A stretch of DNA of 25,328 nucleotides from Thermoplasmata archaeon (GTDB lineage: Archaea > Thermoplasmatota > Penumbrarchaeia > Penumbrarchaeales > EX4484-36), in the NCBI GenBank assembly GCA_021160765.1, contig JAGHBW010000223.1, positions 1 to 25,328 of the forward strand, written 5' to 3'. Both the position numbers and the translations under genes were made by a program. Positions within the stretch are counted from its first letter, which is position 1. Every line of letters starts with the position of its first letter. The notes under the pieces are model-generated. The model was not told the origin of the DNA. It was given only the letters and a program-made list of their open reading frames with translations, and made no database searches. Of the stretch, positions 23,401-25,328 are shown one piece after another.

Positions 23401-25328
23401 GCGCTTTCTGGATCTGTTAAACCTTCAATATGAGGTCTACAGAGTTGTAAATACCTTTGACGGAACCAATGTTGTTGTGGGAAGAGGCCCAACCGTTGAG
23501 AAGATGAAGAGGTACAATCTCATCATCTGGAACTGTGGACTTAGCGGGGGGAGCGCATATAGTGGTATTGAAACAATAACACCTGTTGACCGCATGAATA
23601 TAACAAGATATCTACGAGGCGATTATAGAGAGGCTGAGTACATGGGAAACTATTCTGAGGCGTTTCTGCTGATAGGTAGGTACGTTCTTCCTGAAATCGC
23701 CCCAAATCCACTTTATCAGGCAGGAGATCCATACTGGGAGTTTCTCTACAATTATATGGGCATTGCGGGATATTCCACCGATGCAGTTATCGGAACTACA
23801 CTTTTTGGAACTACAGAGGACGATATAAAAACCCACGGCGTGGAAATACCCCTAGGAAGTACTGTAAACGCCCTTAAATTAGTTAAGAGGCCAGACAACT
23901 CTGGAGTAATATCTGGGGCTTCTCAGGAGGACACTACTAAATACCTTTATTACACTGATGATTTTGATGGGAGAAATCCAATTTCAATTTCTCTGGAGAA
24001 CTCGGGCCCATCATATTTCAAATCAGCCCACCTTGCTTTCTCAATCTCTCCCAATTACTTCCCATATCTTGAACACAGAAGCACTGAGGCATTCTATTTC
24101 CTAGTACACTGGTTCGGGGTTGAGATATATCAACCTGAGCTTTATGGGAGGAGTATAGACATACAGCTAGATGATCCGCACCCCACGGTGGGAGGTAATT
24201 ACGTCCTGTCCTTAGTTGTCGGGAATTATGGGGGTGCTGCTGGCGGTGGTACCGTCAGGTTTATGGACGGTAGAAAGCTCATATACAGCACAACGATCTT
24301 CTTAGAACCCGGAGACGAAGTCACCGTGGAAGCTATTTGGACACCGCTTTTCGCAGGTCAGAGAACTGTGAGGGTTTTCATAGACTTTTACAACAATTAC
24401 GACGAGATCTTTGATTTCATAAACAACATTCCCTCCAAAAATGTGAATATATACTTCTTTTACGATGATATGGAGAATGGAACGAGAAACTTCAGACATG
24501 AATCAATAGTAGCTAGAATAAATGGAGAATCCCCATTGGACTTCTACGACCCACACATGGAGGTAAATACAGACGTTATATCCTCGTGGAATTCTGATTT
24601 ATCCTATAGAGTTGAAATAGATCAGAACACATCCTATAGTCATCCAAAATCTTTCAAACTTTATGAGCCTCCTGGAGGGACCACAAGAAATCCACTGGAC
24701 ATTGTGATGGTTCTGGACACCTCTGGCTCTATGTCTTGGGAGGTGGATGGCGTTCCAAAGATAGACCGGCTGAAGGAAGCCGCGAAGATCTTTATAAGCT
24801 ATCTCACCCCAAGTGACAGGGTTGCAATCTACACGTTCACCAATGAGGGGTATAATTATCCCAATCTCTTTGTGGACTGGACGTTCTGCACACCAGAGAA
24901 CAAAGAGGATCTGAATGACACCATAGATGGTCTTTGGGCAAGGGGGTGGACTCCCCTCTATGACACCGTTGGTGCCGCCGCGAATAAGCTCTATCCGGCC
25001 CCAAGCGGGAGAATGCCTTATTTACTCGTTTTCACCGATGGTGAAGCAAACAGGGACTTTAACTATGGTCCAGGAAGATACGATTATGAGAATCCCACTG
25101 ATAGCCTGGGACAGTGGATGAATACATACTATGAAAACTATTATTACAGTTCAAGTGCGGGAACAAGTGCAGGGAATCGCCAGGGTCTTATTATGGCTCC
25201 ATTCACAGTATATACTGTGGGCCTCCTATCAAGCGGATACCATGACTCAGATTATCCGGAGGAGGAGGACAGTGATACGCCCCCATGGCACACATATTGG
25301 CAGACACATAATGTACTAACTGACAGGA
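20459..25328 (+). CDS. Giant type IV pilin-like adhesin, copy 2: pilin N-terminal domain, CARDB repeats, two LVDDD domains, jelly-roll start and a vWA (MIDAS) domain; 3' end beyond the window
   Basis: Not in the ORF track; translated by hand with no stop over 1623 codons. AAGGAGGG SD; MNRYREREG|VSETMGTVLMVGIAVMLVSSVAIYMAG; PDLAIEEF; RILLVDDDE; RVWVRNNGP; FRAVVDPYHIIPEINEENND; FFYDDMENG; vWA LDIVMVLDTSGSM...GWTPLYD...LLVFTDGEAN...VYTVGL. Confidence 0.9.
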   Translation, partial: MNRYREREGVSETMGTVLMVGIAVMLVSSVAIYMAGNVKEVESVYVSLSSGYTKNATGSVIIFIENTAGDSLRTSRTTVIIKNASGVDVPGSPFLATDCDNNITGVGVWDGNGLWSPGETWSKVLPSNVIFPLHVKVVYEKTTGEKSVVFSEVLEAPPAALLPDLAIEEFYFLRYGQQSDEVLVGETIDLVATITNLGTQPVPESNITVQFYDRDNYVGVGSPQPFSNDTTPGVLAPHESMYYILSGWSVPYPLGIHRIYARITPLPTGELSTANNYRFRELDVSISIVPTRPSGPNPVVTSKDIQLSKDYPKTGDEVSVTLFIKNLGDQPITYDDDLMVVVSTEPITTEGGEIFNWHDDIPAPEGEDYDSFNPGPIPPDFMPGHPDRVDVWKKVKWAEAHGQDMDGNDYTFPTCKIRHLIIPVAGQISITLTFTARSSNPDKILTLYIAVDANPLNYTIRPPDLWDESLPPQRIVFSSEDETVLQGDDPTDNYASLAIQVIPRILLVDDDEAETGSENDVTSHVIESLTGAGVQVDRVFIAQQMTDGGILRDVPAYEYVNPETVGAPQMKDYDIVIWVTGKAESPLSSHADSIYGGNIEEMMKFMDHGGYLWIIGENVLKGLNDDYMGISPDGENFYNLPETLPENLYGNERDDSVIFVKKYLGITKFTVDSDLPGEIFGESESNPITGWSGNTPYSVDMDDAADGSDNFTEQTYPLEDSSDPLGMLFTQDVEASLKEPYGVYHTHTIETGTDIVTYRVVYLPISPLHIRYLNEKIGVAARIMKWFSWELRIGNDLAISKMELVVVEGSMPPKFMDTVEVRVWVRNNGPDTLSTSVEFYVTGPDGIERRITPNFPDPDGDNPRDILNLPGGGGEIMVTKQWKATSVGLHTFRAVVDPYHIIPEINEENNDITYSTSTVTSLVAQNNILVVDDDGSWNGTYGPNGDENSYDEDNPNNWRFEGGATEPPAWAQIPDTTSSITRFLDLLNLQYEVYRVVNTFDGTNVVVGRGPTVEKMKRYNLIIWNCGLSGGSAYSGIETITPVDRMNITRYLRGDYREAEYMGNYSEAFLLIGRYVLPEIAPNPLYQAGDPYWEFLYNYMGIAGYSTDAVIGTTLFGTTEDDIKTHGVEIPLGSTVNALKLVKRPDNSGVISGASQEDTTKYLYYTDDFDGRNPISISLENSGPSYFKSAHLAFSISPNYFPYLEHRSTEAFYFLVHWFGVEIYQPELYGRSIDIQLDDPHPTVGGNYVLSLVVGNYGGAAGGGTVRFMDGRKLIYSTTIFLEPGDEVTVEAIWTPLFAGQRTVRVFIDFYNNYDEIFDFINNIPSKNVNIYFFYDDMENGTRNFRHESIVARINGESPLDFYDPHMEVNTDVISSWNSDLSYRVEIDQNTSYSHPKSFKLYEPPGGTTRNPLDIVMVLDTSGSMSWEVDGVPKIDRLKEAAKIFISYLTPSDRVAIYTFTNEGYNYPNLFVDWTFCTPENKEDLNDTIDGLWARGWTPLYDTVGAAANKLYPAPSGRMPYLLVFTDGEANRDFNYGPGRYDYENPTDSLGQWMNTYYENYYYSSSAGTSAGNRQGLIMAPFTVYTVGLLSSGYHDSDYPEEEDSDTPPWHTYWQTHNVLTDR

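Follow-up and report, generated by a model that had tools for sequence, protein, structure and literature searches.

We analysed a contig of 25,328 nucleotides (C177; GenBank JAGHBW010000223.1), hereafter the window, which is one of the 253 contigs in the 1.4 Mb, 80% complete bin of a Thermoplasmata archaeon (GCA_021160765.1). Its open reading frames and their translations include two tandem paralogues on the plus strand, copy 1 followed by copy 2, that code for giant pilin-like surface proteins and differ in a von Willebrand factor A (vWA) domain with a metal ion-dependent adhesion site (MIDAS), which is present only in copy 2. In blastp comparisons the two products are 33% identical across 1439 residues, and the alignment ends exactly at a junction of the form ...EPP(G)GTR-(A/N)P, where copy 2 reads SFKLYEPPGGTTRNPLDIVMVLDTSGSM. 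The first-pass annotation of this DNA had proposed that copy 2 leaves the alignment at this point to enter a vWA, and both the end of the blastp alignment and the Pfam matches confirm it. For comparison we used a sister genome of the same genus (G001, the present genome being G000), which encodes P0004 (1968 amino acids, aa), the orthologue of copy 1, upstream of P0003 (2399 aa), the complete orthologue of copy 2. Judged by P0003, about 775 aa of copy 2 are absent from the window.

Both products start as pilins and continue as long stalks (Table 1). The N-terminal pilin domain of copy 1 scores 23.5 bits with PF07790, slightly below the cut-off, and shares the motif GVSE(A/T)MGT(I/V)LL with that of copy 2. 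Pfam detects CARDB modules in both copies, and in copy 2 approximately 1,300 residues of CARDB and other modules lie between the N-terminal helix and the vWA. The stalk also contains two repeated modules of alpha/beta appearance (window ca. 21950–22800 and ca. 23250–24100; copy 2 residues ca. 500–780 and ca. 930–1220), which also occur in copy 1 and are kept throughout the family. They start with (I/V)L(L/V)VDDD(G/E) and contain YD(I/V)(V/I)IW(V/L)TG and LW(I/L)IG; these 'VVDDDG' modules had no Pfam family match, and a sequence search of the PDB with one of them gave no match.

Table 1. Features of the two paralogues in the window, and domain layout of the orthologue P0003 (pTM, predicted template modelling score)
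Feature	Position	Strand	Details
Copy 1, paralogue	15384..19868	+	1494 aa to in-frame TGA; 63–70% identical to P0004
Segment A of copy 1	19152..19382	+	VYFFYDDLEGG ... SFWSGREPPPP
Deletion scar, one Glu codon	19383..19385	+	P0004 has 289 residues of vWA and linker there
Segment B of copy 1, rest of jelly-roll	19386..19865	+	GGTRAPDVVGENDRYLITEEFSL ... GWFIDDVEVKVSR; A+B model pTM 0.76
In-frame TGA, TGG (Trp) in orthologue	19866..19868	+	Ahead of the last domain
188 intact codons beyond TGA, terminal InhA-like MAM domain	19869..20432	+	PF20773, 27.4 bits, cut-off 26.9
Copy 2, giant pilin-like surface protein	20453..25327	+	1625 aa present, 3' end lost at contig end
Archaeal type IV pilin N-terminal domain of copy 2 (class III signal peptide and hydrophobic helix)	20480..20710	+	PF07790, 38.6 bits, cut-off 25.2; reads REGVSETMGTVLMVGIAVMLV
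Segment A of copy 2, N-terminal part of split MAM-like jelly-roll	24449..24694	+	IYFFYDDMENG ... SHPKSFKLYEPPGGTTRNP; aligns with segment A of copy 1
vWA domain (type II of the family), first 211 residues	24695..25327	+	Pfam VWA_2 and VWA; window ends inside domain
MIDAS DxSxS = DTSGS (GAC ACC TCT GGC TCT)	24716..24730	+	Read in frame
MIDAS Thr (ACT, in GWTPLYD)	24950..24952	+	Read in frame; alignment column
MIDAS Asp (GAT, in VFTDGE)	25037..25039	+	Read in frame; alignment column
P0003 layout (residues)	A 1346–1427; vWA 1428–1708; MAM-like 1709–1900; FN3 1901–2004; B 2005–2176; C 2177–2399		MAM-like domain matches PF20773

A vWA domain nested in a split jelly-roll

The vWA of copy 2 is recognized by two Pfam families, VWA_2 (PF13519; 39.6 bits, cut-off 27, E 8.9e-10) and VWA (PF00092; 30.9 bits, cut-off 23.8), at residues 1416–1534. 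The MIDAS set that the first-pass annotation had listed (DxSxS, Thr and Asp) is encoded in frame at the positions that it gave, and the window ends after the vWA strand VYTVGLL and ahead of the last helices, with all MIDAS residues inside it. The domain being incomplete in the window, fold matching was done with an 851-residue model of the head of P0003 (predicted local distance difference test score, pLDDT, 71.5); identity between this orthologue and copy 2 is 78% over the 1,625 residues that they have in common and 88% within the vWA. Its vWA is predicted to adopt a Rossmann-like fold, with a Z score of 22.2 to 4fx5 over model residues ca. 90–360, and matches solved vWA domains with overall Z scores of 18–22, among them those of PilB (7b7p, Z 19.7), PitA (7w6b), SpaC (6m48) and the I domains of integrins (about 18); this vWA dominates fold searches made with the whole model. 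Moreover, the vWA is the slowest-evolving segment of copy 2, with a non-synonymous divergence (pN) between both genomes of 0.076 versus 0.16 for the stalk; synonymous sites are saturated (synonymous divergence, pS, >0.75), so that only pN can be compared, and not the ratio of non-synonymous to synonymous rates (dN/dS). The vWA of copy 2 is thus a real vWA with a full MIDAS set that is under strong purifying selection.

Segments A and B lie on either side of the junction, contiguous in copy 1 and separated by the vWA in the lineage of copy 2. Segment B aligns with an inserted, uninterrupted MAM-like domain only from about residue 65 of the latter onwards (blastp, E 1e-8), indicating that B is without the first strands of the domain. 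When the insert columns are removed, the A+B profile can be aligned continuously, through the junction, with that of the intact terminal MAM-like domain (hhalign, 94.4% probability, E 8.6e-8; query 52–236, template 10–197), which locates the insertion in the loop that follows the HSxxxSFW strand. Pfam does not call A+B, and PF20773 is called only on the inserted and terminal MAM-like copies. The structure predictions that the first-pass annotation had proposed as a check agree with the reading of both domains, the vWA of P0003 as described above and A+B of copy 1 as one jelly-roll. The AlphaFold model of the latter (pTM 0.76) is a single jelly-roll in which the only long disordered stretch within the fold corresponds to the junction residues 92–99, and it superposes in VIA-align with reelin 6a48 (Z 11.9), InhA2 4yu5 (Z 11.1) and the MAM domains of meprin and neuropilin (Z 10–11) over residues 53/58–240, which span the junction. 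Profile and model thus agree in predicting that A and B are the halves of one MAM-like jelly-roll, with the vWA nested in its loop.

The first-pass annotation had expected the jelly-roll to resume past the vWA, beyond the end of the window, and had set against this a replacement of the C-terminus. The complete orthologue P0003 decides for resumption: after the FN3 module and a Gly-rich linker the jelly-roll resumes with FERNEDKYFTVGPFSISGS, realigning to GENDRYLITEEFSLKGA of copy 1, and the alignment (FERNEDKYFTVGPFSISGSTSAYLTFWHKY with GENDRYLITEEFSLKGALTAKLTYYQKY of copy 1) extends as far as GW(W/F)IDD(L/V)E(I/V)(R/K)VSR. What does not hold is the vWA as the sole insert, since in P0003 the loop contains 577 aa, made up of the vWA, a whole InhA-like MAM jelly-roll and an FN3-like module, before segment B resumes. 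A further MAM-like domain occupies the C-terminal end of P0003, past the resumed jelly-roll. The same P0003-type gene is carried by L036, the best locus in a search of Joint Genome Institute metagenomes for a contig of the present species; at 98–99% identity to G001, it belongs to the sister species and leaves the gap in copy 2 unclosed. L036 confirms the G001 locus in a separate metagenome record, which is perhaps not an independent sample.

Searches of the 253 contigs with the C-terminus of copy 1 and the missing part of P0003 (tblastn) retrieved no further piece of copy 2. The loose ends of contigs from two sequencing runs past position 25326 translate to (R)TNHRVEYDLW, matching the continuation of P0003. 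Likewise, another contig of the bin (G000:C241:2-1017) contains two small pilin-like genes (ca. 290 aa), the first represented by its end and the second complete; because these genes follow copy 2 in G001, the locus continues on this contig, with about 3.1 kb unassembled. We also observed that the depth of run X6 rises from about 5 to 14–18 over the vWA region (24680–25328), and that one contig, with 8 differences over 421 nt, extends 1,071 nt past the window end. The assembly was probably broken at the window end by a second, more abundant strain that shares the conserved vWA stretch.

The jelly-roll loop across the phylum and its probable role

We surveyed 36 members of the family, drawn from 20 genomes across the order, class and phylum. 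Segments A and B are 290–970 residues apart in 34 of them, and are contiguous in copy 1 and in one gene of genome G027. Of the ten inserts that phmmer had missed or covered in part, eight start with a vWA recognized by Pfam, and the remaining two, judging by the alignment, probably contain a degenerate one. Among the 34 vWA-bearing rows of the alignment, 27 retain the complete MIDAS set. The first-pass annotation had recommended surveying orthologues for the vWA, and the nested domain proved to be widespread (34/36), although its absence from copy 1 is a loss and not, as had been supposed there, the original condition. Sampling 151 genomes of the phylum, we found the family in 25, with A and B contiguous in only three copies (copy 1, G027:C138 and G065:C115). 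A phmmer search with A+B of copy 1 against 1.84 billion cluster representatives gave 154 matches at E ≤ 1e-10, and nine further representatives have an unsplit domain (P0055, P0068, P0070 and P0111 are among the uninterrupted forms). On a tree of 52 members, the presence of the insert changes at least seven times.

A tree of the vWA alone separates two old types. Type I comprises the vWA of P0004, that of one member of each tandem pair in a sister order and that of an unrelated giant protein on contig C171, and type II comprises the vWA of copy 2 and that of the other member of each sister-order pair. The nested arrangement is old, since several of the phylum's families have it, as do the lineages of both paralogues.

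Within each tandem pair of the sister order (L016–L025, compared with L014/L015) one vWA is of type I and the other of type II, which points to an old duplication. In stalk trees, however, the paralogues of that order cluster together, apart from both paralogues of this genus, a grouping for which concerted evolution of the stalk or a long-branch effect may be responsible. The C171 protein (P0033, 1593 aa; G000:C171:1338-1922) consists of Big_7, Big_3_3 and Big_13 repeats and carries the same vWA subtype as P0004 (WCPWH ... EYNLWRIATTS.GGKYYY), with 37% identity over 273 residues to the P0004-type vWA; the occurrence of this subtype in a different giant protein indicates that the vWA module has moved between protein families.

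The occupied loops in the survey start with a vWA, which is often followed by lectin-like modules that differ by lineage (PA14, Laminin_G_3, reelin-B/MAM-like, FN3 and Big_5, from Pfam), and the loop has been emptied several times. In P0041, residues 595–1126 form a cargo of 532 residues, without Pfam match, that takes the place of the vWA in the same jelly-roll loop. A broad reading of these patterns, which we advance tentatively and rate at somewhat less than an even chance, is that the loop of the head jelly-roll is a conserved display socket that took up a vWA, of two old types, early on, was loaded repeatedly with PA14, LamG, MAM-like, FN3, Ig-like or the 532-residue cargo, and was emptied several times, copy 1 being a fresh case; nesting, rather than end-to-end shuffling, would then be the main route by which surface binding diversifies in this lineage.

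The best explanation for the locus, to which we assign a probability of roughly 0.8, is a Thermoplasmatota family of pilin-like surface proteins of 1,500–2,700 residues with an old nested vWA that was kept in copy 2 and deleted from copy 1, and with a probable role in adhesion. The N-terminal helix would anchor the protein in the membrane or in a fibre resembling a type IV pilus, and the stalk of CARDB, other beta-sandwich and alpha/beta modules would hold the head off the cell. The head consists of MAM-like jelly-rolls, and the MIDAS vWA is carried in the loop after the conserved HSxxxSF(W/Y)..EP strand of the first. By analogy with the I domains of integrins and with PilB, RrgA and SpaC, the vWA may bind an acidic group of its ligand through the Mg/Mn site, and the neighbouring lectin-like modules may add or tune specificity. 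Adhesion, ligand and pilus display are all inferred from such analogies, and 'tip adhesin' would be a reasonable analogy for copy 2.

Domains of the vWA type mediate the assembly of complexes in many systems. The nested vWA could likewise be an assembly module that uses its MIDAS to bind a partner within the apparatus, such as one of the two small pilin-like proteins, its giant paralogue or an envelope protein, instead of an external ligand. Such a role would agree with the conserved cluster of giant genes in tandem pairs plus two small pilin-like genes; with the presence of one vWA of each type in the sister-order pairs, which would fit complementary partners; and with the stronger conservation of the vWA relative to the remainder of the protein, an unusual pattern for a surface part under diversifying selection. 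We consider it unlikely, if well short of negligible, because the modules that follow the vWA in the loop are of lectin type and differ between lineages, as is typical of ligand-binding heads, and because pilus adhesins are among the closest solved vWA structures. Furthermore, copy 1 persists without a vWA in at least two strains, indicating that the domain is not indispensable for the apparatus.

Loss of the vWA from copy 1

Copy 1 reads SFWSGREPPPPEGGTRAPDVVGEND from position 19350, with a single Glu codon (E, 19383–19385) between the Pro-rich stretch and GGTR (19386–19397). P0004 reads ...FWSGQEPPPP, then LDVVICMDTSSSM, which starts the 289 aa that end in ...QYSR, and then GGTRAPACVEPGDRYIITEEFSL, where copy 1 has EPPPP-E-GGTRAP. 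From copy 2 and copy 1 of the window, the first-pass annotation had deduced that the vWA was inserted into copy 2 after the tandem duplication, and that the Pro-rich linker of copy 1 was the original state. This deduction had in its favour that, in the window alone, the jelly-roll of copy 1 is uninterrupted and that of copy 2 interrupted, and it agrees with the existence of uninterrupted versions elsewhere (G027:C138, G065:C115, P0055, P0068, P0070, P0111 and others), which point to an uninterrupted ancestor at some depth. Against it, P0004 has a vWA of 289 aa at the identical site, between EPPPP and GGTRAP, so that the linker of copy 1 is the scar of a deletion. In P0004, segment A, the vWA and segment B together take up only 546 residues.

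The trees argue in the same direction. They were built on the 800 residues upstream of the insert, and the columns of the trait itself were excluded. Copy 1 pairs with P0004, and copy 2 with P0003, each at 100% support and nested within clades of vWA-bearing members; the insert-less gene of G027 is, likewise, sister to an insert-bearing paralogue in the same genome. In addition, the vWA types of both lineages are old, each being common to one member of the sister-order pairs. We therefore regard an insertion into copy 2 after the duplication as very improbable.

We also considered whether P0004 could have gained its vWA recently. This was rejected because the nearest relative of this vWA is only 46% identical, compared to 63–70% identity in the flanks. 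With a value so far below that of the flanks, the vWA of P0004 was not acquired after the split between G000 and G001 and, therefore, it was lost from copy 1. In all, both paralogues descend from a vWA-bearing ancestor, and in this genome a clean in-frame deletion removed about 289 residues from copy 1.

It is scarcely credible that the absence of the vWA from copy 1 is an artefact of mis-assembly or collapse: the bin is fragmented, and the contig breaks inside the vWA of copy 2, where the depth of one run triples, but Logan contigs from two other studies, each 3–4% divergent (strains ca. 96% identical), cross the scar with 0 gaps (X1 record 3, 18918–19817; X3 record 13, 18870–20110), and the scar keeps the reading frame and sits exactly at the domain borders.

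The frame of copy 1 is interrupted by a TGA before its terminal domain (Table 1). The domain behind it is the best conserved part of copy 1 (pN 0.14; 75–80% aa identity to the orthologue), which indicates that the TGA is recent, polymorphic or an error. Recoding of TGA was rejected, because five other genes in the window use this codon as a normal stop. The vWA-less copy 1 is evidently maintained, because its frame of 1494 codons has been kept through about 35% protein divergence.

Several points weigh against an old nested adhesin module lost from copy 1. One distant clade has more insert-less members than vWA-bearing ones; a gain by recombination between paralogues is conceivable there, and at the deepest level the polarity may be one gain followed by losses or some other sequence of events. 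The model of segment A has low confidence over its first 55 residues, and the contact between A and B in the vWA-bearing form is taken from the model of the insert-less copy 1 and from the profile alignment. Likewise, the resumption of the jelly-roll is read from the orthologue and not from this DNA, in which the last ca. 775 residues of copy 2 are unassembled. As for display, no pilus assembly genes adjoin the locus, and the PF01478 model of prepilin peptidases found no match at E ≤ 0.001 in G000 or in the sister genome.

The genome encodes four T2SSE-type ATPases, none of them on this contig. It also encodes a polytopic membrane protein with aspartic-peptidase motifs DLRERQIPD and GGADVK (G000:C143:1472-2350, minus strand), which is orthologous, with 56% identity, to a weak PF01478 candidate of 305 aa in the sister genome and which, from its sequence, is a candidate prepilin peptidase. 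Pilus display of the giant proteins is thus possible, because ATPases and a candidate peptidase are encoded, all of them unlinked to the locus; an N-terminal membrane anchor or a bindosome-like assembly are the alternatives.

The genes adjoining the pair are archaeal housekeeping genes, coding for aIF-2B, the beta chain of PheRS, LonB and a tRNA intron endonuclease. Upstream of copy 1, positions 12578–15304 encode a surface-type protein of 908 aa with PKD/Ig repeats and a C-terminal DnaJ (J) domain (PF00226, E 4e-19), and this protein is conserved, with 920 aa, at the same place in the sister genome.

Significance and comparison with known systems

Adhesins with a nested vWA are a known design, and what appears to be new here is the archaeal family and its MAM-like host domain. 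To our knowledge, and in a non-exhaustive search of full-text literature, no MAM-like domain with a vWA in this loop has been described; the same kind of search found no description of the family. In databases, its relatives are proteins from Thermoplasmatota or Thermoplasmata archaea that are labelled only as 'CARDB domain-containing protein', 'VWA domain-containing protein' or 'type IV pilin'. The sequencing runs that contain the locus are metagenomes from hydrothermal vents and marine sediments, environments in which uncultured Thermoplasmatota are common, and the family may bear on how these archaea attach to particles or partners. The nested vWA, as the most constrained part, marks itself as the piece for functional study, and loops that are emptied, hold a vWA alone, or hold a vWA plus lectin-like modules offer a natural series in which to follow the gain and loss of nested domains. 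There is also a lesson for annotation, because an apparent insertion in one paralogue was a deletion in the other, and a single genome would mislead.

Among described proteins, PilB of Streptococcus sanguinis (7b7p) resembles copy 2 in combining a class III signal, a pilin-type helix and a vWA module with a MIDAS, which in PilB is functional and used for adhesion (PMC8179133). The extra stretches within the vWA of this family recall the 'arms' of PilB and RrgA, and the ConA-like lectin module of PilC, from the same S. sanguinis, parallels the LamG and PA14 cargo. Copy 2 differs from PilB in that more than 1,300 residues of stalk precede the vWA, in that a MAM-like jelly-roll encloses the vWA, and in its pilin domain, which belongs to the archaeal PF07790 and not to the bacterial IPR012902. 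Because there is no short-linker graft onto a small globular pilin module, copy 2 may at most function in the manner of a modular pilin, and is not a bimodular pilin of the PilB type. The survey in PMC8179133 relied on the bacterial pilin signature alone, and the text of that paper does not contain the word 'archaea'.

The same nesting logic is seen in RrgA/GBS104 (2WW8), tip adhesins of sortase-assembled pili, in which the vWA (D3) separates the sequence halves of beta-sandwich domains (D1, D2) that fold back on each other; this vWA contains a MIDAS site and two inserted arms (PMC7893114). The host is an IgG-rev or CnaB-type domain in RrgA/GBS104 and a MAM-like jelly-roll here, and the former are proteins of bacterial monoderms, anchored and polymerised by sortase via LPXTG, whereas these are archaeal. 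The C-terminus of P0003 ends in ...MMQTYGDPQGVEL, with no LPXTG and no membrane anchor, and the lack of LPXTG indicates that the protein is not a sortase adhesin. SpaC and PitA, which are related to RrgA, are among the structural matches of the modelled vWA of P0003.

In integrins, a vWA/MIDAS domain (alpha I or beta I-like) is inserted in a loop of a beta-propeller or of the hybrid domain, which is possible because the N and C termini lie next to each other in the vWA fold. The host fold is different in the archaeal proteins and, unlike in integrins, further whole domains share the loop. The allosteric switch of the alpha7 helix and mechanosensing are features of integrins, and the likeness here is one of fold, MIDAS and insertion topology. 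Finally, InhA-like MAM (PF20773), MAM and the subrepeats of reelin belong to the same fold class as the host and the extra jelly-rolls, PF20773 matching the inserted and terminal domains.

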